Assembly: GCA_963814985.1 (NCBI GenBank)
Contig: CAWFFV010000034.1
Location: 110,749-174,748, forward strand
Length of the DNA: 64,000 bases
Origin: an uncultured Chloroflexia bacterium
GTDB taxonomy: Bacteria > Chloroflexota > Ktedonobacteria > Ktedonobacterales > Ktedonobacteraceae
Direction: 5' to 3'
Below, piece after piece: positions 4,195 through 57,842 of this stretch (within the stretch, counting starts at the first letter, position 1; each line of letters begins with the position of its first letter). The notes below the pieces were generated by a model, which had not been told where the DNA came from, searched no databases, and was given only the letters and a program-made list of their open reading frames with translations. Made by a program: the position numbers and the translations under genes.

Positions 4195-6130
4195 GCCGAC
4201 CTGACAGAAAAGAACCCGCCGCAAGCCGTTGCGGTTTGAACCCATGCGGTCAGGCGGGTTTTCTACGGCTTTAGCCCTTGCTTGTTGCATTCTGTCTAAA
4301 TTTCATTATACTGGATGTATGGAAAAGACAGATCGACTGAGCTACAAGCGAGAGGAACACCGATCATTTCATTTGAGGCGTGAATTCCCTGAAATCCTCA
4401 CCAAATTGCCCTCAACGTGGACCCGTTCGTATTTCTCTAGCACTGCTGGCGCGGTAAGCGCAGAAACGATTCAGAAATACATTGATGCTCAGAAAGGCGT
4501 GTAACGCACATGGCAAAGGCGACCAGGACGATCCAGCAGGCTTTGAACTATCAGCCCGACCATGCAGCATGGTTTGCGGCCAACCAGGACCAGTTTAACC
4601 GTGTGGTCGCCTTTTACTTTGGCGTGATCAATGCCCATGAAAAGCTGATGGATCTCTCCAATAAAGAGGCCCTCTCTGCACTAGAGAAACTCACTCACCG
4701 GACAACGGACAACCCCGATCCGATCATGCCTTTGACCTCAATTGCGGAACATATCCCCGCGATGTTCCGGCGTGCCGCCATTAACGCAGCGCTCGGCTCT
4801 GCACATGCATTCTTCAGCAGCCTCAAGAAGTGGAAAGCCAGGAAAGCAAAAGCAGAGGCCAGGGGCAAGAAATGCAAAGATCGTCCACCCGTGCCCCCAC
4901 GCACCTGGAGAAAATCTGCCTCATTCTATGCTGGCATGTGGAAAGACCGAACGGCTTCTACTCTCCTGCTCAAGGTGTGGACCGGCTCGTGTTGGGCCTG
5001 GGTCAAGGTGCGAACGCTGGGAAGAGAGGGAGAAAACGGCTTTGAACCGGGTAGCCCCTCTTTAGTCTGCAAAGGCAAGCAGTGGTGGCTGCATACTCCT
5101 GTTGAGAAGAAATTCACCAGTCCAGCAAAAGTCGCTGAGCAGATCACCAATACCACGACAAAACTCTGTTCAGTTGATCTCAATCTCGGCGAGAACCTCG
5201 CCGTCTGCACTATTCAGACTGTCGAAGGTACAATTCTTTCCACCCGATTTCTCAAAGGTGGCAAACGGGTAAACGGCTTTAGGAAGAGACAGCTCGGAAT
5301 CATTGCACGGAATCGCCGCAAGACGGGAATCATTGCCGAAGGGGAGCAGGATAATGCTGCGCTCTGGCAACAGATCCGCCACCATGATGAAACCCAGTCC
5401 CATCAGATCAGCGCCCGCATTGTCCAATTTGCCAAAGCTCACGATGCAAGCATCCTGGTCTTTGAACACTTAGGCAATCTGAAGCCAGAGCGAGGAAAAT
5501 ATAGCAAACGCGGCAATACCAAACGTGCCTTCTGGATGAAGGGGCGTATCTTCCAATACGCCAAATACAAAGCCTGGAATGAAGGCATCATCACGAGCCG
5601 CGTCAACCCTCGCAACACGAGCCGCGAATGCGCCCGTTGCCATTCGTTGGTGATCCGCTATGCACAAGGATCACTCGAAGAAGGCTACACGATAGGGACT
5701 CCACTCGTGGTCTGTTCCTCCTGTGGGATGCGGGGCAATGCTGATCGCAATGCCGCCATCGTGATCGGGCGGCGGCTCATCACCCGTCATCAAGAAAAGC
5801 CTCACACTCTTCCTGCTCAAAAAGCGAGGGAGGATGAGAAATCATCAGGTGAGATCATCTGCCAGGATGCCAAAAGGGATGAGAGACCGTCCATCTCTCG
5901 AACTGGGCGTGCAGATCATCTGGGGCATGGCACCGCCCACGAGAGAAAGCGCCGGATCTATTCCTACCCAACTACGCCTATTCACCGAGTAGCTTCTACG
6001 AGGCACATACTCACAATGAGCGACTACGGAGGAGTGGAAGAAGCCGCCGTCCCTTCAGGGCGTGCGGAGTGTCACGGAGTCGTGAAATTGATGTTTTGCG
6101 GCTGATGGCCAGGGGAATAATATACAATTT
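4195..6130 (+). mobile_element. IS200/IS605-family (IS1341-like) element carrying tnpB only; boundaries are approximate.
   Basis: A GC-rich nested hairpin at about 4209-4262 (cccgccgcaagccgttgcgg...ggcggg) precedes a TnpB ORF. No tnpA gene is present. Confidence 0.45.
4510..6105 (+). CDS. tnpB: TnpB (OrfB) RuvC-like RNA-guided nuclease of the IS605/IS607 family, with a long C-terminal extension.
   Basis: A RuvC-like core is followed by the zinc finger CARCHS...CSSCG and the motif NADRNAAIVIGRR. The ORF is 531 aa versus a typical size near 400 aa, so the 3' roughly 300 nt probably overlaps the omega-RNA or right-end region. Confidence 0.85.
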   Translation: MAKATRTIQQALNYQPDHAAWFAANQDQFNRVVAFYFGVINAHEKLMDLSNKEALSALEKLTHRTTDNPDPIMPLTSIAEHIPAMFRRAAINAALGSAHAFFSSLKKWKARKAKAEARGKKCKDRPPVPPRTWRKSASFYAGMWKDRTASTLLLKVWTGSCWAWVKVRTLGREGENGFEPGSPSLVCKGKQWWLHTPVEKKFTSPAKVAEQITNTTTKLCSVDLNLGENLAVCTIQTVEGTILSTRFLKGGKRVNGFRKRQLGIIARNRRKTGIIAEGEQDNAALWQQIRHHDETQSHQISARIVQFAKAHDASILVFEHLGNLKPERGKYSKRGNTKRAFWMKGRIFQYAKYKAWNEGIITSRVNPRNTSRECARCHSLVIRYAQGSLEEGYTIGTPLVVCSSCGMRGNADRNAAIVIGRRLITRHQEKPHTLPAQKAREDEKSSGEIICQDAKRDERPSISRTGRADHLGHGTAHERKRRIYSYPTTPIHRVASTRHILTMSDYGGVEEAAVPSGRAECHGVVKLMFCG

Positions 6131-8964: not shown

Positions 8965-8976
8965 ATGGATCTGGTC

Positions 8977-9128
8977 ATAAGTCATCCCGGTAACTATTCA
9001 GGTGTTCTCACCATCTGCGGTGGCCCGCCCTCGTTTTGTTGGCAGTGGCAGGGTTTGCGCCGCAAACCCTGCCACTGCCAACAAAACCTACGAAGCGCCT
9101 GTGGCGCTGAGGAGGCAGGGAAAAGGGA
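8977..9128 (+). repeat. Family-1 palindromic MITE copy; the right TIR is missing.
   Basis: A GTCATCCCG remnant is followed by GTAACTATTCAGGT, then ...CACCATCTGCGGTGG..., then a perfect 55-nt palindrome (GTTTTGTTGGCAGTGGCAGGGTTTGCG-C-CGCAAACCCTGCCACTGCCAACAAAAC), then CTACGAAGCGCCTGTGGCGCTGAGGAGGCAGGGAAAAG. Confidence 0.75.
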
Positions 9129-9166
9129 TGTCTCTAAATGCTGCTCTCACAGCGAGAGCGGCATTG

Positions 9167-11205: not shown

Positions 11206-11298
11206 CGGATAGATATTCAGACGTATAGTAATGGCAAAGGGATCATGCGTGTACATGCATGATCCCTTTGCCATTACTATACGTCTGGAATATCACCC
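11206..11298. repeat. Large near-perfect palindrome of about 90 bp, with 31-bp perfect arms around an 8-nt centre.
   Basis: The left arm CAGACGTATAGTAATGGCAAAGGGATCATGC (11218-11248) is followed by the centre GTGTACAT, then the right arm GCATGATCCCTTTGCCATTACTATACGTCTG (11257-11287). The flanks extend the palindrome with a single indel. Confidence 0.8.
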
Positions 11299-12060
11299 GT
11301 AACTACTCAGATCCCTGTTCCATGGGTCATCCCGGTAACTATTCAGGTACCCTCACCACCTGCGGTGGCTCGCTCTCATGAGTCATCCCGAACTTTTGAA
11401 AAAGTTCCCAAAACCGGGGGTGCAGGGTTTCCCTGCCGGGGCTTGGGGTGTCCCCAATAGCTTCTTTTTCCTCTCTCTCCGCCGCAAGCGGCGAGCAAAA
11501 GAAGGAAAAGATGTTTTTCGGGGGCACCCCAAACCCCGGCAGAAGGCTGCCGCCCTCTGCACTCCCGCTTGCCAAACAGGTCAAAAGGGCATTTCATGTC
11601 CCGGAAAAGTTCGGGATGACTCATTGCCTGCGAAGCGCCTACGGCGCTGAGGAATCAGGGAAAGAAACCTGAGTAGTTACGTCATCCCGAATTTTTCGAA
11701 CAAAGGTTCGCAATCTCTCAAGCGGCTTGAGAAGCGGGATTGTCAAGGGCGGCCAGCCCTTGACCGGGGTCTGACTTGTTATCACAACTTTAGTCGATCT
11801 GCTGAGCCAGCTTGGGAAGCTGACTCCCAAGGATGAGTTCAAGTGATTCTAGCTCAGCAGAACAGAGAGACGAGCCGTTTTCATCGGCTTGCCACCTGCC
11901 TTCACAAGATATCGACTAAAGTTGGATAACAAGTCAGACCCCGGCAGGGATGCTGCACTCCCTGCACCCTCGCTTTTGCGAACTTTTGAAACAAAAATTC
12001 GGGATGACTCATGGAACAAGAGCAAGCCACCGCAGGTGGCGAGCAGACCTGGATAGTTAC
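11299..12060. repeat. Composite nest of MITEs: a solo TIR, a family-1 MITE carrying a complete family-2 MITE (11378-11624) in place of its variable core, a second long family-2b palindromic element (11681-12013), and an inverted solo family-1 left arm (12014-12060).
   Basis: At 11335-11377, GTAACTATTCAGGTACCCTCACCACCTGCGGTGGCTCGCTCTC is followed directly by ATGAGTCATCCCGAACTTTTG...CAAAAGTTCGGGATGACTCAT, and then TGCCTGCGAAGCGCCTACGGCGCTGAGGAATCAGGGAAAGAAACCTGAGTAGTTAC ending at 11680. The family-2b element has internal inverted repeats GGGGTCTGACTTGTTATCACAACTTTAGTCGAT / ATCGACTAAAGTTGGATAACAAGTCAGACCCC. Confidence 0.75.
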
Positions 12061-12068
12061 GGGTGATA

Positions 12069-13695
12069 TTAATGAAAAAGTATCGAAGCCAGGATCAGGA
12101 CCACCACAGATTGTATGACCCAGGTAATCAGTCCAAGCATTATAGCTTTCATTCCCGCAGTTCTGATTGCAGATGACGTCACACGAGTACAGATCCCGAT
12201 AATTGCTAACATCAAAAAGACCGCAGAGAAAGTCGTGGGAAAGGTTTTTGCAGGCCATGTTGCTAATGGTCCTGTCAGCCCAACTGGAAGGGTAATCACG
12301 GTATTGATCAGCACTAACACGAAGAAAGCAAGCACAAAGAGTGGAAATGTCTTCAAGGCACCCGTCACAATAGTAGTTCCTTGACTTCTGGCCTCCTGTA
12401 CATTCTCTTTCCAATTAAAGAATATATTCAAGGAGAAAACAAGCACCACGATAAAGCCAATACAGAATCAACTTCACGAGCAGTGCAGCATTGAGTGCAG
12501 CTGTCCCTCCTCCTTGTTGAGCGGCTGCTATCAGCTGTGGTAAATCATGCATCGTTGCTCCTGTCCAGGCTCCATAGACGGCAGGGCTGAAGTGAAAGAT
12601 GCTATTGATCAGCGGATAGAGAAACAATCCTACTGTTCCCCAGCACAGGATCGTTCCCAGGGTAATGGCCGTTTCTTCATCTCTAGCACGAATAGCTGGC
12701 GATGTCGCCATGGTTGCCGTTATTCCACAGATGCCCGTGCCTGTTCCAATAAGAGCCGCTATGCGGGGATTGATTTTCATGAGTTTGCCAACGGACATGG
12801 AGACACCAACAGCAATCAAGACTGTCGAGGTAACGATGACGAGATCCTGTATCCCGGATTTGAGTAGGGAGGTGTAGGAAAATTTTAGAGCAGAGAGGAT
12901 GATACCAAGTCGAAGGAACCAGCGTGTGCTAAAGATCAGACCTGGCTGTATCCGTTCCGAAAGCGGATAAATATTCCCGACAATGAGAGCGAAAATCCCT
13001 GCGATAAAGATATCTACAAAAAAAGTATTGTGCAAACTGATTTCAATATTCCACAATAGTTCCGCTATAGCAGCAATTGGGAAAACCACGAGCAACAAGC
13101 CAGGCAATGCCCTCTGAATTTCCTCGTAACCAGGATAAAGAGGCGTGCCTCGCCACCCAAGGTAGCTCTTGAAGGGAAGCGTTTCCTCGTCTTGCAACGG
13201 AGAAGAGAACTCATGGAGAATACCTGTTACTTCCTCAGCCATGCTTCTACTATCAGGTTCTCTTGTCACTCTTAATCTGTTTGTCGCCTCGGTTTCTCCC
13301 TGGAAATTTGTTAAAAGAGCTTTGGAAGAGAGTAGCTCTTCTATTTGACCTGGGGAGTGCCTGGGATACAAACGTATCACTTCGTCTAAGCGTTGCATAT
13401 GTGTCGTTACATTCGGTCCCAGGTAAACACCTGGGAGACCACGAAGAAGCGCAGTATCTTCACCGAACACACGTCCTCCAAAGCAGAGGATCGGACGAGG
13501 ATGCTGCAAGTGGGCTACCTCTCGTCCCACCTCCTTCACATCATGGATACGGGAACGTTTCATCGCTGAAAGATAGATAATTCCTGGACGGATAGGACGT
13601 ATTGTCTCAAGCAACCTGGGCAAATCCCTGACCTCTGACAACTGTCCGTGATAATGTACATGGAATCCCGCACGACGCCAAAAGAGAGCCAGCAT
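12069..13695 (-). CDS. YeiH/UPF0324-family (putative sulfate exporter family) membrane transporter with an N-terminal B12-binding-like Rossmann domain. There is an apparent frameshift near 12415-12450, and the reading frame stays open upstream of the annotated Met.
   Basis: GTGTGICGITATMATSPA matches the YeiH GSSICGASA motif, and there are many TM segments. The N-terminal RKGLLIFVCSAPQETYEIDALMLALFWRRAGFHVHYHGQLS aligns to the B12-binding domain but lacks the canonical DxHxxG histidine. The last roughly 120 aa are in another frame (12069-12449). Confidence 0.55.
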
Positions 13696-18422: not shown

Positions 18423-18574
18423 GTAACTGTTCAGGTATCCTCGCCACCTGCGGTGGCTCGCTCTTGTTTTATGCGGGTTGCGGTGTTTGCGCCGCAAACA
18501 CCGCAACCCGCATAAAACAATCTGCGAAGCGCCGAAGGCGCTGAGGAATCAGAAAAAGAGACCTGAATAGTTAC
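18423..18574 (+). repeat. Complete 152-bp family-1 MITE with 14-bp TIRs.
   Basis: Reads GTAACTGTTCAGGT-ATCCTCGCCACCTGCGGTGGCTCGCTCT-[perfect palindrome TTGTTTTATGCGGGTTGCGGTGTTTGCG-C-CGCAAACACCGCAACCCGCATAAAACAA]-TCTGCGAAGCGCCGAAGGCGCTGAGGAATCAGAAAAAGAG-ACCTGAATAGTTAC. It is flanked by AAATTT-like sequence on both sides. Confidence 0.85.
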
Positions 18575-23476: not shown

Positions 23477-23881
23477 ATAAGTCATCCCGAATTTTTCGGA
23501 CGTACGTTCTATATCTTTCAATCCGCTTGAGAAGCAGGGTTGCAAGGGTAGCAGCTCTTTTCCGGGGTTTGCAGGGGCGTCCTCCGCTTCTTTCTCTCTC
23601 TTCTCACATTACCTGTGTTGTCGTATAAAAGAAGAAAAAGGGGTTTTTCGGGGATATCTGGGTTTGGCAACCCGCGAACTACGGCAGAGTGCTCTGCCCT
23701 ATAGACCACTTTCCGATTCTGGTTGGTTGTAACTATTCAGGTTCCCTCGCCACCGGCAGGTGGCTCACTCTCGTTTTATGTGGGTTGCGGTGTTTGCGCC
23801 GCAAACACCGCAACCCACATAAAACAACCTGCGAAGCGCCGTACGGCGCTGAGGAATCAGGGAAAAGGAAACTAAAGTTAC
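23477..23881 (+). repeat. MITE nest: a truncated family-2-like element (23481-23728) followed by a complete family-1 MITE (23729-23881).
   Basis: ATAAGTCATCCCGAATTTTTCGG... is followed by GTAACTATTCAGGTTCCCTCGCCACCGGCAGGTGGCTCACTCTC-[perfect palindrome GTTTTATGTGGGTTGCGGTGTTTGCG-C-CGCAAACACCGCAACCCACATAAAAC]-AACCTGCGAAGCGCCGTACGGCGCTGAGGAATCAGGGAAAAGGAAACTAAAGTTAC. Confidence 0.8.
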
Positions 23882-24188: not shown

Positions 24189-24412
24189 TGAGGCTAACAG
24201 CCAGACGTTTAAGCATGAGATATGTGTGGGCCAAATACATAAAAAATCCCTTCATTCAACAATATTTGGGTAGGTAGATAAGCATTCCCAAATGTTCTTG
24301 CCAGGAGGAGCAGTGTATGTTAGTGGCATGCTCCTGTCAATATCCATCTCATAATGTAACTGCTCGGATCTCCTTTTCTTAAATCCTCACTGCCATAGGC
24401 AGTTCACAAGCC

Positions 24413-24534
24413 GTTTTGTTGTCTGTGGCTGAGATTGCACCGCAATCTCAGCCACAGACAACAAAACCCACACAATATGAGAGCGAGCCACCGCAGGTGG
24501 TGAGGAATCAGGAAAAAGGGCCTGAGCAGTTACA
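24413..24534 (+). repeat. Rearranged family-1 MITE: core palindrome, then the inverted box A, then the right tail.
   Basis: The perfect palindrome GTTTTGTTGTCTGTGGCTGAGATTGC-ACC-GCAATCTCAGCCACAGACAACAAAAC is followed by GAGCGAGCCACCGCAGGTGG (the reverse complement of box A) and TGAGGAATCAGGAAAAAGGGCCTGAGCAGTTAC. Confidence 0.7.
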
Positions 24535-26355: not shown

Positions 26356-26394
26356 TGTACTGGACCTCTTAAAAAATATAGTGCATAACTCCTC

Positions 26395-26565
26395 AGGCTC
26401 CTCTTTCCGGATTTCTCAGCGCCTTCAGCGCTTCGCAAGCTCGTTGTATGTGGGTTTTGTCGCCTGTAGTAGAGGTTGCGACGCCTACTACAGGCGACAA
26501 AACCCACATACAACGGCTTGCGAAGCCACTGCAGGCGGTAGAGGAGACCTGAAGAGTTACGATAT
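26395..26565 (-). repeat. Inverted-orientation family-1-related MITE with an extended palindrome.
   Basis: GGATTTCTCAGCGCCTTCAGCGCTTCGCAAG is the reverse complement of the right arm. It is followed by the palindrome CTCGTTGTATGTGGGTTTTGTCGCCTGTAGTAGAGGTTGCGACGCCTACTACAGGCGACAAAACCCACATACAACGGC and then TTGCGAAGCC...ACCTGAAGAGTTAC. Confidence 0.65.
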
Positions 26566-36522: not shown

Positions 36523-36783
36523 TATGAGCCATCCTGAACTTTTGTTTCAAAAGTTCGCAAAAGCGAGGGTGCAGGGAGCGCAGCATCCCTGCCGGGGTCT
36601 GGGGTGTCCCCAGAAACTCTTTTTACCTCTTTTGTACGCCGCTGCAGGCGGCGTGAGAGGAGAGAGAAAGAGGCAGGGGACACCCCTGCAACCCCGGCAA
36701 AGGGCGGCTGCCCTTTGCAATCCTGCTTCTCAAGCCGCTTGAGAGATAATGAACTTTTGTTCTAAAAATTCGGGATGACCCAT
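36523..36783 (+). repeat. Complete family-2 palindromic MITE of 261 bp; it overlaps the 3' end of ung.
   Basis: TIRs ATGAGCCATCCTGAACTTTTG ... AAAAATTCGGGATGACCCAT flank an internal long imperfect palindrome (GGGTGCAGGGAGCGCAGCATCCCTGCCGGGGTCTGGGGTGTCCCC ... GGGGACACCCCTGCAACCCCGGCAAAGGGCGGCTGCCC). Confidence 0.8.
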
Positions 36784-42206: not shown

Positions 42207-44156
42207 TTGGCCCACTGCCTTAATCCGCGCTCCGGCGGGGGACACAACAACTCGGATACAGCCATTAGCTGTCAACGCTGCGGCTTTCTCATCCAGGGAG
42301 CGCACATTGGCATCTATGAAGTTATCTCCTTCATTGGTGCAGGTAGCTATGGCTATGTCTACAAAGTGCGTGAACCGATCCCTCTCAGTCGTATCCTGGC
42401 TCTCAAGGTTCTGCGCCTTGATCAGTTCAACGAGAAAGCCCAGGCGAGCTTTTTCCAGGAAGCACGGCGCATCGCCAATATGCAGCACCCTAATATCTTG
42501 CCGATCTACAATTTTGGGCAAATAGAGGAGAACGAGCAACCCTATCTTGTTATGGAATATGCTCCTCAGACAATCACTGACCTCTTCCGCAAATCTGATG
42601 GGAGCATACGTCTGGCCTACGCCGAAGAACTTACCTCTTATATCCAACAGGCCGCAGATGCTCTGCACTATGTACATAAGAGCGGCCTTATCCATCAGGA
42701 TGTTAAGCCTGGGAACCTGCTGATTGGGCGCAGCAAGCAACTGCTGCTTTCCGACTTTGGCACCACTTTCTATCTTGGTATGCAGACACATGCATCTCTC
42801 GGCGAAGCTACCGGGACAGCGGCCTATATGCCACCGGAACAATGGCGAGGTCATCCACGGCGTGACTCTGACCAGTATGCGCTTGCCATCTGTTGTTATG
42901 AATTGCTCGCAGGTCGTCCTCCTTTTGTTTACAGCCGACTGGAGGAGATGTGGAGTGCGCATATAAACGAGCCGCCGCCAGCACCACAACAATGGAATCC
43001 ACGTATCCCCGTAGAGGTAAGTGCGATACTCTTGCGTGCTCTTGCCAAAGACTATCGCCAGCGCTATGCCAGCATAACCGACTTTGCAGACAGTTATGCC
43101 AGCGCGGTACAGATCGCCTTGCAACGCTATGTCTGTCAGGCATGTGGACAGCAGAACCGTAGTGGAGCGCAGCGCTGTGCTATCTGTGGTGCTGAATATG
43201 ATAACCGCCATTGCCTCTTTTGTGAGACACCTGTACGCTTTGGGCAACGCTGTTGCTCAGCATGTGGACGTCTGACAATTCCATCAACAATGGCCTTGCG
43301 TAGCCCACTTGTGGGTGTGAGCATACGCCAGGGACGCTATACAATTAAGCGTGTCCTCAAACAATCTGACGAGACCCATGTTATGTCGGCTATTGCCAGT
43401 GATGCTCAAAGGCATGAACAACTTGTGATGCTCAAGCGCTGGGAGTGCGCTGATGGTACACTTACCCATCGGGCTAAAGATGTAGCCTACTATGAACATG
43501 CCACAACAGCACTCACGAGGCTCCATCATCCGTTGATCCCGGCTGTACGAGATCGCTTTGCTGAGGGTAAACATTATTACCTGGTACAGGATTATATCGA
43601 CGGCGAGAGCCTGGAAGAACTTCTGCAAAAACTCCTGCGACCATTACCAGAACGAGATATTCCTGGCTATCTCAATACGCTACTCAATATCCTGATAGTC
43701 TTAGAGCAGCAAAAGCCTCCTGTGTACCACTATGATATCTCGCCAGCTAATATCATCATTGAGAGGAAGCGTGGAAGAGCCATACTTACAGGCTTTCAGA
43801 TTTTGCCACCGCCACCGCAGCCTTCACCTGGCCCACAAGTTGAAGCTCGCAGACATCGCACCACCCGTAAACTGGTAGTTTCACCATATCTCCCTCTCCA
43901 GGATAAACCCTATGACCAGCGAACCTGCATCTATAGTCTGGCTGCAAGTATGCATCATGTCCTGACGAATATCGCGCCACCGCACTACCCGGCATACCCA
44001 TCTGTGCGTCTCCTCAATCCCAACATTTCATGCGAGCTGGAAGCCATTCTCAGTCGCGCCTTGCAGGAGGATAGTGCTGCTCGCTACCAGAGTTATGAGG
44101 CGATGAAGAGGGATCTCCAGGGACTTTTGTCAACAAAAGGGAAGGCCACTCACTAG
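42207..44156 (+). CDS. Ser/Thr protein kinase with two central zinc-ribbon motifs and a C-terminal second (pseudo)kinase-like domain.
   Basis: The Hanks kinase motifs are present (GAGSYGYVYK, ALKVLR, HQDVKPGNLL, DFG, AYMPPE), followed by CQACGQQ...CAICG and CLFCETPV...CSACG, and then a second kinase-like fold (HYDISPANIII). Confidence 0.88.
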   Translation: MAHCLNPRSGGGHNNSDTAISCQRCGFLIQGAHIGIYEVISFIGAGSYGYVYKVREPIPLSRILALKVLRLDQFNEKAQASFFQEARRIANMQHPNILPIYNFGQIEENEQPYLVMEYAPQTITDLFRKSDGSIRLAYAEELTSYIQQAADALHYVHKSGLIHQDVKPGNLLIGRSKQLLLSDFGTTFYLGMQTHASLGEATGTAAYMPPEQWRGHPRRDSDQYALAICCYELLAGRPPFVYSRLEEMWSAHINEPPPAPQQWNPRIPVEVSAILLRALAKDYRQRYASITDFADSYASAVQIALQRYVCQACGQQNRSGAQRCAICGAEYDNRHCLFCETPVRFGQRCCSACGRLTIPSTMALRSPLVGVSIRQGRYTIKRVLKQSDETHVMSAIASDAQRHEQLVMLKRWECADGTLTHRAKDVAYYEHATTALTRLHHPLIPAVRDRFAEGKHYYLVQDYIDGESLEELLQKLLRPLPERDIPGYLNTLLNILIVLEQQKPPVYHYDISPANIIIERKRGRAILTGFQILPPPPQPSPGPQVEARRHRTTRKLVVSPYLPLQDKPYDQRTCIYSLAASMHHVLTNIAPPHYPAYPSVRLLNPNISCELEAILSRALQEDSAARYQSYEAMKRDLQGLLSTKGKATH

Positions 44157-50497: not shown

Positions 50498-50668
50498 TAT
50501 CAGATATCCTTACCACCGCAAGTGGCTTACTCTCATTGTGTGGATGGTATTGTACCGTGGCGGAGATTGCAGCGCAATCTCCGCTACGGGCGATACCATC
50601 CACACAAAATAGCTGGCGAACTGCCGTGGGCAGTGAGGAATCGAAAGAAAAAAGAACACCTGAAGTAC
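50498..50668 (+). repeat. Divergent family-1 MITE copy.
   Basis: Reads TCAGATATCCTTACCACCGCAAGTGGCTTACTCTC-[imperfect palindrome]-AGCTGGCGAACTGCCGTGGGCAGTGAGGAATCGAAAG...ACCTGAAGTAC. Confidence 0.6.
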
Positions 50669-53294: not shown

Positions 53295-56090
53295 TTGCAA
53301 AGGTTGGATCTGATTGGCAACCAGTTGAGTGAGATTCCCAGGGAACTAGGGCGGTTAAGCACCTTGCGAGAGCTGTATTTGAGTAACAACCAGTTGAGTG
53401 AGATTCCCAGGGAACTAGGGCAGTTAAGCACCTTGCGAGAGCTGTATTTGAGTAACAACCAGTTAAGTGAGATCCCCAGGGAACTAGGGCAGTTAAGCAC
53501 CTTGCACAGGTTGGGTCTGAGTAACAACCAGTTGAGAGAGATCCCCAGGGAACTAGGACAGTTGACCAACTTGCAAATGCTGTACCTGATTGGCAACCAT
53601 CTGAGTGAGATCCCCAGGGAACTAGGACAGTTGACCAACTTGCGAGAGCTGAATCTACGTGATAACCAACTGAATGAGATCCCTGAGGAATTAGAGCAGT
53701 TAAGTAGCTTGCAAGAGCTGTATTTAAGGAACAACCAGCTAAGTCAGGTACCTGTGAAACTAGGACAGTTGACCAATTTGCGTGTTTTGCAAATAGAGGG
53801 AAATCCCAACCTGTTAACACCTCCTCCGGAAATTGTGGCTCAAGGGACAGCGGAAGTATTGACCTTTCTACGGGAATTGCAAATTGCAAGCGTTACGCGT
53901 TATGAAGCGAAGTTGCTATTGGTTGGTGAAGGCGCTACGGGTAAGTCTTCGTTGTTACGATCACTGCGTGGACAAATGTTTGATACAAATCTCGATACGA
54001 CGCATGGTATTGAAGTGGATAATCTGCGGTTGCCTCATCCTCGTCTTCCCTCGCAGTCTGTGGTGCTTAATACGTGGGATTTTGGGGGACAGGATATTTA
54101 TCATGCAACACACCAGTTCTTTTTGACGAAGCGTTCACTATATCTGGTGGTGTGGAATGCGCGGGCTGGTACAATCCAGGGTAAACTTGATTACTGGCTT
54201 GATACGATTCGCGTGCTTGCTCCCGATGCTCCAGTTTTATTGGTGGCAACCCATATTGATGAGCGCTCACCGGATCTGAACGAGCAGCAATATCGCACCG
54301 CATATCCCCAGATTGTCGATGTACTGTCTATTAGTAGCAAAACTGGTCAGGGGTTTGAGACATTAAAGCAGGCTTTAGCACAACATGCGGCATCGCTTCC
54401 CCTGGTAGGACAACCCTGGCCAACCTCGTGGGTAGCGGTAGAGCAAGCACTACTGGTTCGTCCTGAACATCACATTGACGATGTAGCCTATATAAACATG
54501 TGCACTCACGAAGGCGTACAGATCGAGATGGCGCAGGGTACATTAGGCAGTTACTTGCACGATCTGGGCAAGGTGCTCTACTTCCGTGATGATCCTATCT
54601 TGAGAAGCATCGTTGTGCTCAAAGCCAATTGGGTTACCAAGGCGATCAGTCTAGTCCTGGAAGATCCCACAACGAAGGCTGCCAATGGTATATTGGCACA
54701 TACTGATTTATCGCGTATCTGGGCCATTGACGAGGATAAACGCCCCTATGCAAAATCGCTGTATCCCATCTTTTTACGCTTAATGGAGCGCTTTGACCTG
54801 AGCTATCAGATTGATCCCATGGTTCCTGGCCAGCATCCTACACATAGTCTCATACCCCAATTATTGCCCTACAACGAACCACCATCTGTAACACAGGTCT
54901 GGCCGCCCGTTATCGCGTCTCAGATGCATATCGAGATGATCTATCGTTTCGACTTTGTACCCGCAGGCATTATGAGCTGGTTTATTGTGCGTACCCATCG
55001 CTATACACAGAACCTGCACTGGCGCGATGGGGCAATCCTTGCCTATCAGGGGCATATCGCAAGGATTGAACTGTTTCCAATGCTGCGTGAGCTACGCATT
55101 GCAGTATGGGGAATCCAACCGTACACCTTCTTTGTCATCCTCAAAGAGACGCTGGATCTGATCTTGTCGCGCTTTGAAGGGCTACAGGCCAGACGTGAAG
55201 TACCATGTATTTGCCAGAGGCAAACAACAAAACCTTGCCACGAGGTCTACCGATATGAAGAAGATCTGGTTAGACGGTTTCAGCATAATAAGCATACCGT
55301 CGAGTGTCCAGCAAGTTATGAAGAAATATCTGTGCTAGAACTTCTTTATGGCATTCATATTGGTACAACATCACTGGTGTGGGCCAATGTTGAAGCGGGG
55401 CAACAGGAGATTTTGCGAAAGCTCAATACTTTGCAACAAAAAGATGATCTCTTGTTACAAAAAGTCAGCCAACTCACAGAATGGAATGTACGCAACTTCA
55501 CACGTCTGTGGAACCTGGAGATGCGCCGAATGGAAGCTGAGTGTCCCAATACTTTCTTCCTCATTCCAGACCGTCGAACTGCTTTTAACCCTAAAGAGTG
55601 GATCAGTCACAACTACAAGCTATTTTTAATCTGTCAGCATCCACCTGAGCCTCATATTGCTGACGAAGAACACGGCTATGATCTGAAAATGCCAAAAAGG
55701 TGGTGGACAACCGTTGCGCCCTGGCTCAAGTACCTCATCACCTTTCTCAAGTTCGGCGTTCCGCTCGGTGATGCACTGGGAGCCATCGTAGACACTGTGG
55801 ACTTCAAAGCCATCGAGAACCAATTGAAGTTGCTAGAGCAAATCACCGTGGACCTGCCAGAAATTGTGGTGGAAAGTGGCTCTTTAGACGCCGTCGAGAA
55901 GGAGTTGCATGTTGGTCGGGATCAAGTGGTAGGACCGGCGTTGCGTGTCTTGCACAGCTTTCTCGATGAGGTTGACAAGGCACACTATTGGAATGGGCTA
56001 CAAAGAGTTGTAACACCTGATGGCAATATTCTCTGGCTTTGCGCAAAGCATGCGCGACCCTACGAGGTGCAGCCATTGCAATTGGGATAA
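53295..56090 (+). CDS. ROCO protein: LRR - Roc (Ras-of-complex GTPase) - COR domains.
   Basis: LRR units are followed by the Roc GTPase P-loop VGEGATGKSSL, the switch II motif WDFGGQ and the G4 motif LLVATHID, then a COR-like region. This stretch is an intact 931-aa ORF. Confidence 0.85.
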   Translation: MQRLDLIGNQLSEIPRELGRLSTLRELYLSNNQLSEIPRELGQLSTLRELYLSNNQLSEIPRELGQLSTLHRLGLSNNQLREIPRELGQLTNLQMLYLIGNHLSEIPRELGQLTNLRELNLRDNQLNEIPEELEQLSSLQELYLRNNQLSQVPVKLGQLTNLRVLQIEGNPNLLTPPPEIVAQGTAEVLTFLRELQIASVTRYEAKLLLVGEGATGKSSLLRSLRGQMFDTNLDTTHGIEVDNLRLPHPRLPSQSVVLNTWDFGGQDIYHATHQFFLTKRSLYLVVWNARAGTIQGKLDYWLDTIRVLAPDAPVLLVATHIDERSPDLNEQQYRTAYPQIVDVLSISSKTGQGFETLKQALAQHAASLPLVGQPWPTSWVAVEQALLVRPEHHIDDVAYINMCTHEGVQIEMAQGTLGSYLHDLGKVLYFRDDPILRSIVVLKANWVTKAISLVLEDPTTKAANGILAHTDLSRIWAIDEDKRPYAKSLYPIFLRLMERFDLSYQIDPMVPGQHPTHSLIPQLLPYNEPPSVTQVWPPVIASQMHIEMIYRFDFVPAGIMSWFIVRTHRYTQNLHWRDGAILAYQGHIARIELFPMLRELRIAVWGIQPYTFFVILKETLDLILSRFEGLQARREVPCICQRQTTKPCHEVYRYEEDLVRRFQHNKHTVECPASYEEISVLELLYGIHIGTTSLVWANVEAGQQEILRKLNTLQQKDDLLLQKVSQLTEWNVRNFTRLWNLEMRRMEAECPNTFFLIPDRRTAFNPKEWISHNYKLFLICQHPPEPHIADEEHGYDLKMPKRWWTTVAPWLKYLITFLKFGVPLGDALGAIVDTVDFKAIENQLKLLEQITVDLPEIVVESGSLDAVEKELHVGRDQVVGPALRVLHSFLDEVDKAHYWNGLQRVVTPDGNILWLCAKHARPYEVQPLQLG

Positions 56091-57630: not shown

Positions 57631-57842
57631 GTAACTCCTCCGACATCTTTTTCTGGATTCCTCAGCGCCGAAGGCGCTTCGTGAGTTGTTTTATGCTGGT
57701 TGTGGTGTTTGCAGCGCAAACACCACAACCAGCATAAAACAAGAGCGAGCCACCACAAGTGGCGAGGGTATCTGAATAGTTACCGGGATGACCCATGACG
57801 AGGGCGAGCCACCGCCGGTAGTGAGCAGATCTGAGTAATTAC
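57631..57842 (-). repeat. Inverted-orientation family-1 MITE, followed by a family-2 TIR fragment and an additional solo family-1 left arm.
   Basis: GGATTCCTCAGCGCCGAAGGCGCTTCG is the reverse complement of the right arm. It is followed by the perfect palindrome GTTTTATGCTGGTTGTGGTGTTTGC-AGC-GCAAACACCACAACCAGCATAAAAC, then AGAGCGAGCCACCACAAGTGGCGAGGGTATCTGAATAGTTACC, then GGGATGACCCAT, then GAGCCACCGCCGGTAGTGAGCAGATCTGAGTAATTACC. Confidence 0.75.

Follow-up and report, generated by a model that had tools for sequence, protein, structure and literature searches.

Reciprocal nesting of two families of miniature inverted-repeat transposable elements in a Ktedonobacteraceae contig

The DNA studied here is a stretch of 64,000 nucleotides from an uncultured Chloroflexia bacterium of the family Ktedonobacteraceae (assembly GCA_963814985.1, contig CAWFFV010000034.1, positions 110,749 to 174,748; hereafter the window), which carries two families of miniature inverted-repeat transposable elements (MITEs), family 1 (F1) and family 2 (F2), with copies of each lying inside copies of the other. 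The two families are unrelated and have probably inserted into each other repeatedly, each being a preferred landing site for the other. The best reading of the evidence is a reciprocal target-site preference together with some amplification of composites; this is a mutual target preference between transposon relics and not a new kind of genetic system.

Direct reading and inverted-repeat analysis peel the region 11299-12060 without residue into an outer F1 copy (F1out) that contains an F2 copy (F2b), which contains an inner F1 copy (F1in), which in turn contains another F2 copy (F2a; Table 1). F2a is the complete 247-bp element that a preliminary description of this DNA had placed between the box A and box B of an F1 copy, and it is indeed found there: its terminal inverted repeats are complementary at 20 of 20 positions and its interior is an imperfect palindrome with 40-nt arms (75%). 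Its immediate flanks are ...GGTGGCTCGCTCTC on the box-A side and TGCCTGCGAAGCGCC... on the box-B side, within the enclosing arms GTAACTATTCAGGTACCCTCACCACCTGCGGTGGCTCGCTCTC (box A, 11335-11377) and TGCCTGCGAAGCGCCTACGGCGCTGAGGAATCAGGGAAAGAAACCTGAGTAGTTAC (box B, 11625-11680), which together constitute F1in. As had also been stated, other F1 copies (18423, 23729 and, as reverse complement, 57783) present a perfect palindrome with arms of 26-28 nt at the position that F2a occupies in F1in.

On either side of F1in stands GTCATCCCG, a perfect 9-bp target duplication. Excision of 11335-11689, which removes F1in and one GTCATCCCG, regenerates an intact F2 terminus, ATGGGTCATCCCGAATTTTTCG (joined sequence ATGGGTCATCCCGAATTTTTCGAAC...); hence F1in was inserted into the left terminus of F2b. 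The arms of F2b are 87-95% identical to those of F2c, a copy that stands alone, and F2b falls into another subfamily than F2a. The centre of F2b (~11773-11935) is a palindromic module (arms 11764-11798 and 11911-11944, 35 nt, 97%) that stands in place of the normal F2 centre seen in F2c; no second copy of it was found in the window or in any fetched locus, and it was rejected as a repeat family since it is unique in all sequence compared. Since the left arm of F1out is a box-B arm that has been shortened, F2b took away hairpin B as well and was not strictly confined to the F1 core. Removal of F1out joins AATATCACCC to GGGTGATATT into a perfect 20-bp palindrome. The four layers described earlier are thus all present, but with the F2b central module and the split palindrome there are more than four. 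The whole nest folds far more stably than shuffled sequences (z -16.5). Beside it, at 11212-11294, a separate near-perfect palindromic element of 83 bp was noticed, whose ends (GATATTCAGAC...) resemble the F1 terminal repeat and whose right end is half of the 20-bp palindrome split by F1out.

Table 1. Coordinates of F1 and F2 features, F2/box-A junctions and complete insertion sequences (ISs) with F2-type termini; positions are those of the window unless a fetched locus (L) is named.
Feature	Position	Strand	Remarks
F2 end fragment	8977-8989	+	ATAAGTCATCCCG, directly upstream of F1 terminus
F1 with ordinary core	8990-9131	+	27-nt perfect arms; right terminal repeat lost
Left half of 20-bp perfect palindrome	11289-11298		AATATCACCC; split by F1out
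F1out	11299-12060	-	centre holds F2b; without direct target repeat
F1out left arm	11299-11321		shortened box-B arm
F2b left terminus	11322-11334	+	ATGGGTCATCCCG; severed from rest of F2b by F1in
Left copy of target duplication	11326-11334	+	GTCATCCCG; within F2b left terminus
F1in	11335-11680	+	13-nt terminal repeats GTAACTATTCAGG / CCTGAGTAGTTAC; core replaced by F2a
F2a	11378-11624	+	complete F2 MITE, 247 bp; 20/20 complementary terminal inverted repeats ATGAGTCATCCCGAACTTTT
Right copy of target duplication	11681-11689	+	GTCATCCCG; from F1in insertion
F2b remainder	11690-12012	+	reconstructed F2b is 336 bp
F1out right arm	12019-12060		box-A arm (reverse complement)
Right half of 20-bp perfect palindrome	12061-12070		GGGTGATATT; split by F1out
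Reference F1 copy	18423-18574	+	152 bp; defines box A, core and box B; folds as four-way junction
F2 copy	23477-23700	+	left terminus intact (ATAAGTCATCCCGAATTTTTC), right half degenerate; just upstream of F1 23729-23881
F2c	36524-36783	+	stand-alone F2, not associated with F1; no direct target repeat
F1 with ordinary core	57631-57783	-	complete; box-A terminus abuts F2 end fragment
F2 end fragment	57784-57796	-	ATGGGTCATCCCG on minus strand; between two F1 arms
Outer-F1 box-A arm	57797-57842	-	core position begins with F2 fragment (CTCGCCCT-CGT-CATGGG)
F2/box-A junction, F1in			CTCGCTCT-CATGAG
F2/box-A junction, F1out			CTTGCTCT-TGTTC-CATGAG
F2/box-A junction, 57842 copy			CTCGCCCT-CGT-CATGGG
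F2/box-A junction, metagenome	L132		CTCGCCCT-G-CATGAG
Complete IS	L032 4426-5868		F2-type termini
Complete IS	L085 143-1585		F2-type termini
Complete IS	L094 4850-6427		F2-type termini
Complete IS	L139-L148		F2-type termini

The nesting would have been a local accident had it been unique to this locus, a case that the preliminary description had allowed for, but it recurs at 57631-57842, at 8977-9131 and in the metagenome locus L132. At three of three junctions F1 begins after the same nucleotide of an F2 terminus, the joint being GTCATCCCG/GTAAC at 8981-8989/8990, at 11326-11334/11335 and, on the minus strand, at 57784-57792/57783. F1 left ends had been reported behind this motif at the first two of these positions, where they are present, and at 11681, which is instead the second copy of the target duplication. 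The F2 end struck by F1 lies on the box-B side of the outer F1 in the copy at 11322 and on the box-A side in the copy at 57796; therefore at least two independent strikes of F1 on the F2 terminus are required, and a single origin of these two junctions was rejected. Furthermore, the three inner F1 copies have different centres (F2a; TGTTTTATGCTGG...; CGTTTTGTTGGC...) and do not cluster.

These junctions have also to be weighed against an explanation by descent, in which one or two chance nestings made composites that were multiplied as units, whether through the F1 transposase or through segmental duplication, and later trimmed by deletion. MITE composites with two compatible termini are known to move, and several features of the present copies agree with such a history: the three GTCATCCCG/GTAAC junctions all point the same way, the outer remnants at 57842 and 8965 have GATCTG...GTC in common, TACTCAGATC is common to the 11299 and 57842 arms, and this junction type is absent from the eight unique metagenome F1 copies. 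Indeed, the fragment at 8977 is preceded by GGATCTGGTC, likely a remnant of an outer F1 arm, and from GATCTG...GTC this copy may share descent with the one at 57796. Nevertheless, descent as the general explanation seems rather unlikely to us, since it does not account for an F2 end struck beside box B in one copy and beside box A in another, nor for three inner F1 copies with different centres; no composite is flanked by a target duplication, F2a and F2b are of different subfamilies, and F2 within F1 is found again in L132 in a different F1 copy and with F2 reversed.

In the opposite direction, four F1 copies, of which three are in the window and the fourth is in L132, have an F2 element at 0-5 nt from box A, and the core is gone each time (junctions in Table 1). 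Complete transposon termini of F2 (CATGAGTCATCC...) are found on the box-A side at four of four junctions. Remnants of the core beside F2 amount to these 0-5 nt on the box-A side, and TGTTCC to the left of F2b, considered as a further remnant, is more readily taken as part of the shortened box-B arm. An F2 end abutting an F1 arm had been noted at two places; this is so at 57796/57797 and, across a spacer of 6 nt (GGAACA) between F2b and the box-A arm, at 12012/12019. In L132 the F2 arm beside box A is the one that is remote from box A in F2b, that is, the orientation is reversed, so that this insertion of F2 into F1, on an unrelated metagenome contig, represents an independent event. The reversed orientation in L132 and the different subfamilies of F2a and F2b together imply at least three independent arrivals of F2 at the same few nucleotides. 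The earlier suggestion that the two families target each other's ends stands in one direction, F1 being found three times behind the same nucleotide of an F2 terminus, but F2 targets the centre of F1 and not its ends.

Under random placement, the binomial probability of at least three of 11 F1 ends falling at one F2-terminus nucleotide is 4e-8, and that of at least three of six F2 copies falling within 6 nt of box A is 3e-6, both estimates using ~12.8 kb of non-coding DNA, a value that is assumed and not measured. In the window the F2 terminus matches six times (0.11 expected) and the F1 13-nt terminal repeat 17 times (1.03 expected). A chance pile-up of elements in a permissive intergenic region, or an artefact of assembly, is hardly credible: intergenic DNA does collect MITEs and all of the window comes from one assembly, but the same junction nucleotides occur at three loci, separated by 3-46 kb, and once more in a different assembly, the binomial probabilities are of the order of 1e-6 to 1e-8, and the arms of the nest are imperfect (84-95%), unlike those of fold-back assembly artefacts.

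F1 itself is ~152 bp long, has 13-nt terminal repeats and is present in multiple copies, as expected of a MITE in size, repeats and copy number. It is predicted to fold into a four-way junction made of a terminal-repeat stem, a CCTC/GAGG stem, and hairpin A, the core hairpin and hairpin B (z -14.6 versus shuffles). From 13 F1 copies RNAalifold recovered hairpins A and B as well as the CCTC/GAGG stem; as the program cannot align a segment so variable as the core, no covariation statistic is claimed for that part. Profile searches found 11 box-A and 9-10 box-B arms in the window, and a scan of metagenomes with a box-A pattern gave 27 loci; F1 copies of the same layout are present at 12 of them (8 unique). 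F1 was also considered as a known RNA gene and rejected, there being no Rfam match at the gathering score: in the window Rfam found nothing but a transfer RNA, and in the nest only generic hairpin (microRNA-precursor) matches below threshold.

The arms of F1 are 76-95% identical between copies while the core sequences differ strongly. The window has six long perfect palindromes (24-28-nt arms, 100% complementary), each of them an F1 core, and none stands alone. Ordinary cores have differing middles but a common base GTTTTRT, a common apex (TTGCGCCGCAA in the window; CCTGCGG or CTCGGG types in the metagenomes) and a G/T-rich 5' arm, and for these reasons they are variants of one module and not foreign passengers. 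Conserved as a module, the central hairpin is perfectly palindromic and evolves fast. Between orthologous metagenome loci the core alone differs, by a flipped 4-nt loop (TCGG versus CCGA in L117/L134 versus L124) or by ~16 nt deleted at the apex (L118 versus L126); within populations the core flip-flops and decays. Separately, the metagenome locus L116 (minus strand, ~1226-1518) holds an F1 copy in which box A is duplicated and a duplicated 36-nt segment (TGTGGTCCCAGGAGATTGTGGTGGAGGCGATGGTAG) interrupts the core behind its first 14 nt, which makes it another core-centred rearrangement.

These features of the core bear on two further explanations. The first, put forward in the preliminary description, regards F1 as a carrier of variable cargo whose centre is a cassette site for any palindromic passenger, short palindromes and F2 being alternative cargos. 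F2 does replace the core exactly in F1in, a unique palindromic module has in turn taken the place of the F2b centre, and the cores vary far more than the arms do. However, homology among the ordinary cores and the confinement of all six long perfect palindromes to F1 leave this idea mostly without support, and F2 possesses its own termini, autonomous relatives and copies outside F1 (36524 and Dictyobacter loci); it is improbable as stated, and the part of it that survives is that the centres of palindromic elements are replaceable, by F2 in F1 and by the unique module in F2b. The second explanation, to which we give slightly less credence still, attributes the pattern to F1 fragility and not to transposase choice, host nucleases of the SbcCD type cutting hairpin tips and repair inserting any repeat. 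Core instability within populations and complete loss of the core wherever F2 is present would be in line with it, but the complete F2 termini at every box-A junction point to joints made by a transposase rather than to random capture, and the same IS family is found in palindromes of unrelated phyla.

The F2 copies are 247-336 bp long and contain only frame-dependent open reading frames (ORFs) of up to 90 amino acids (aa). Besides the copies in the nest, a stand-alone copy had been reported from 36523 onwards; F2c is present there and starts at 36524. F2a is 80-83% identical to Dictyobacter copies over 148-204 aligned bp. The F2 terminus, CATGAGTCATCCCGAA, likewise bounds a widespread IS of 1.44-1.58 kb in Chloroflexota and Bacteroidota. 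When its 20 nt were scanned against one genome per species, at least 111 loci were obtained, and among the matches listed these are non-coding repeats, many at contig ends, carried in Bacteroidota by Saprospiraceae, Lewinellaceae, Arcicella and Flectobacillus and in Chloroflexota by Dictyobacter, Ktedonobacter, Chloroflexia and Anaerolineae. Among the same matches paired termini are mostly 160-410 bp apart, which is MITE size, and at five loci or more they stand 1443-1578 bp apart around a single ORF of ~444 aa. A few matches within a conserved protein-coding gene of Alphaproteobacteria were set aside as chance. No match to the terminus was found in viral contigs, a tblastn search of plasmids with the transposase returned one weak, unannotated match, and searches of full-text literature for the terminus gave unrelated primer matches only.

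Complete ISs with termini identical to those of F2 were identified at L032, L085, L078, L094 and L067 and at eight sites of one identical IS among L139-L148. These last ten fetched loci give seven distinct flank pairs and ends that read (A)AC, then ATGAGTCATCCCGAA...TTCGGGATGACTCAT, then G. The 444-aa transposase of the F2-type ISs matches Pfam DDE_Tnp_1 (27.8 bits; cut-off 23) and the Tn5 transposase (E 2e-5), and the IS4 signature Y(2)R(3)E(6)K was found in six of six proteins, while the IS4, IS701 and IS1634 NCBIfam models remain below threshold (best 52.6 bits; cut-off 152). More than 4,400 homologues were found, mostly on ~1.4-kb contigs, as expected for a multi-copy IS. In this parent IS the stop codon lies inside the right terminal repeat, and the termini have 16-20 identical nt between transposases that are ~45% identical, across two phyla. 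An unnamed IS4-like lineage is the description that fits it best, and with IS termini that match its own and no transposase gene in the window, F2 is a MITE of that lineage.

At 54 sites of the F2/IS family in other genomes no direct target repeat was found, nor at the copies in the window, although a palindromic AT or CATG target duplication would be indistinguishable from the terminal repeat; a target duplication of 8-13 bp, as in the IS4 family, is not seen in the parent IS, and for a Tn5-like DDE enzyme this is unusual. Ten of the 54 sites lie inside site-specific inverted repeats of 7-14 nt compared to 83 of 2862 cross-paired controls (Fisher p 5e-6). Two minor observations concern these termini. 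Hairpins of 32-45 bp made of just two F2-type termini (e.g. ATGAGTCATCCCGAATTTTTGGGATGACTCATG) are scattered in Bacteroidota genomes, Saprospiraceae and relatives (L022, L025, L029, L030, L074, L076, L082 and L095), and may be either scars left by excision or MITEs of the smallest possible size. In Ktedonobacter sp. SOSP1-85 (L063, 4580-4612) the left IS terminus and 8 nt of flank are duplicated in tandem (…TGTAATC ATAAGTCATCCCG T CAGTAAC ATAAGTCATCCCGAA…); the sequence ...GTCATCCCG TCAGTAAC ATAAGTCATCCCG... at this locus was considered as an excision footprint of F1 and rejected for that reason.

With a reciprocal target preference, F2 and its parent IS would favour the centres of hairpins or palindromes, of which F1 would be the largest perfect one around, and F1 would favour GTCATCCCG in the F2 terminus. 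At 11299-12060, F1out would have arrived first, followed by F2b in its centre, F1in in the left terminus of F2b and finally F2a in F1in, unless F1in already carried F2a when it moved; repeated rounds of such mutual insertion would build the alternating nest. Some copies would then have lost one side by deletions stopping exactly at the F1 end, as possibly at 57631. No second GTCATCCCG was found on the far side of this F1 copy (57631-57783). Transposases are known to cause deletions next to a transposon end, and the junction copies at 57784-57842 and 8965-8989 may descend from one composite later deleted in this manner. As for the loss of the F1 hairpin, we speculate that strand transfer could occur across the base of an extruded cruciform, leaving hairpin tips as flaps that are removed, which would also cover the palindromic flanks of some F1 copies.

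Several observations weigh against this reading. Neither the window nor the 148 fetched loci hold an autonomous IS with F1 termini, and tblastn with the parent transposase found no F2-type transposase in the window, autonomous F2-type ISs being seen only in other genomes. The census of nesting covers 64 kb and eight metagenome loci, not a genome. A clean target duplication is found at one F1 copy only, F1in; seven of eight positions agree at the metagenome copy L116 and the other copies have none, and F1out and the metagenome copy L120 lie without duplication at the exact centre of perfect palindromes of 20 and 24 bp respectively, which a simple model of a 9-bp stagger does not explain. As GTCATCCCG is found at the end of none of the eight unique metagenome F1 copies, the F1-into-F2 junction so far comes from one genome only. 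Its three copies share their orientation, and those at 57796 and 8977 also share outer-arm marks and are hence not fully independent. Finally, plain insertion into the core would have left one half of it on each side of F2; no such halves are present, which calls for either a further deletion or an insertion chemistry out of the ordinary.

A bolder proposal takes up this last point. The IS4/Tn5-like family would integrate across the stem of a hairpin or cruciform and discard its tip (a 'hairpin-swap'), F1 would use the F2 terminus as a safe landing pad, and the two families would trap each other in inert nests. We regard it as unlikely in this full form; if true, it would account for the missing target duplication and the site-specific inverted repeats that flank many of the copies in several phyla, as well as for the precise loss of the F1 core where F2 is present and for the replaceable palindromic centres.

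Nested MITEs are common, and known bacterial MITEs include Nezha, the nested MITEs of cyanobacteria and the Correia elements; literature searches on Ktedonobacter MITEs and nested MITEs returned nothing specific. F1 and F2 resemble bacterial MITEs in being short, non-coding, multi-copy and intergenic, with terminal inverted repeats and mutual nesting, and in the case of F2 in sharing termini with an autonomous IS. They differ from known nested MITEs in that the nesting is reciprocal and position-specific (F1 at a single nucleotide of an F2 terminus, F2 where the central hairpin of F1 has its base), that F2 shows no direct target repeat and that F1 folds as a four-way junction with a fast-evolving palindromic central arm. 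IS4321 and IS5075, of the IS1111 group of IS110, target one set point within the terminal repeats of Tn21-family transposons, using a DEDD transposase and making no target duplication. F1 is similarly found in one orientation at a fixed position in the terminal inverted repeat of another element, three times out of three after ...GTCATCCCG, but unlike these ISs it is non-autonomous and, at F1in, is flanked by a 9-bp duplication.

IS1397/ISKpn1 and ISPpu9/10 insert into REP/BIME palindromes, and group IIC introns and IS1111-attC elements target stem-loops. The F2 family and its parent IS are likewise enriched at palindrome centres, with the F1 hairpin as a target; in contrast to the REP/BIME-targeting ISs they belong to the IS4/Tn5-like DDE class, the target hairpin is deleted instead of split, and no single conserved target sequence was found. 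The parent IS shares with the IS4 family (IS50/Tn5, IS10) the DDE_Tnp_1 domain, the Y(2)R(3)E(6)K signature, a weak but specific Tn5 match and a single ORF ending in the right repeat, and departs from it by the lack of a 9-12-bp target duplication, scores far below the NCBIfam cut-offs of all named IS4, IS701 and IS1634 models, and termini that are identical between 45%-identical transposases. What is distinctive here is the reciprocity of two MITE families, an IS4/Tn5-like element without target duplication, and the loss of the target hairpin.

Should the mutual preference hold genome-wide, it would be a natural example of transposons serving as each other's safe havens, with damage to host genes limited. 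Mutual insertion also inactivates the element that is struck, since F1 inside an F2 terminus destroys that terminus. The very widespread, unnamed IS4-like IS has termini that are conserved between phyla, shows no target duplication and prefers palindromes; its integration chemistry may differ from the Tn5 paradigm. Furthermore, F1 and F2 account for most of the long hairpins and intergenic repeats seen, and are best masked ahead of any search for RNA genes or regulatory elements.

Other copies and genes of the window are noted here for completeness. A degenerate F1 copy lies at 50500-50656, and at 24355-24533 and 26385-26560 there are two F1 copies with mixed arms, in which a box-B-type spacer accompanies a box-A hairpin or the reverse; from this mixture the two F1 arms may be diverged versions of one arm. 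An ORF of 531 aa at 4510-6105 (+) has a Cas12f1-like TNB domain (TnpB-like, IS605/IS1341-type), and no link of it to F1 or F2 was seen. A Roco-type protein (LRR-Roc-COR) at 53295-56090 (+) and a Ser/Thr kinase at 42207-44156 (+) are consistent with a Ktedonobacteria-like, developmentally complex host, and one flanking protein has its nearest other homologues, 72% identical, in Ktedonobacteraceae.

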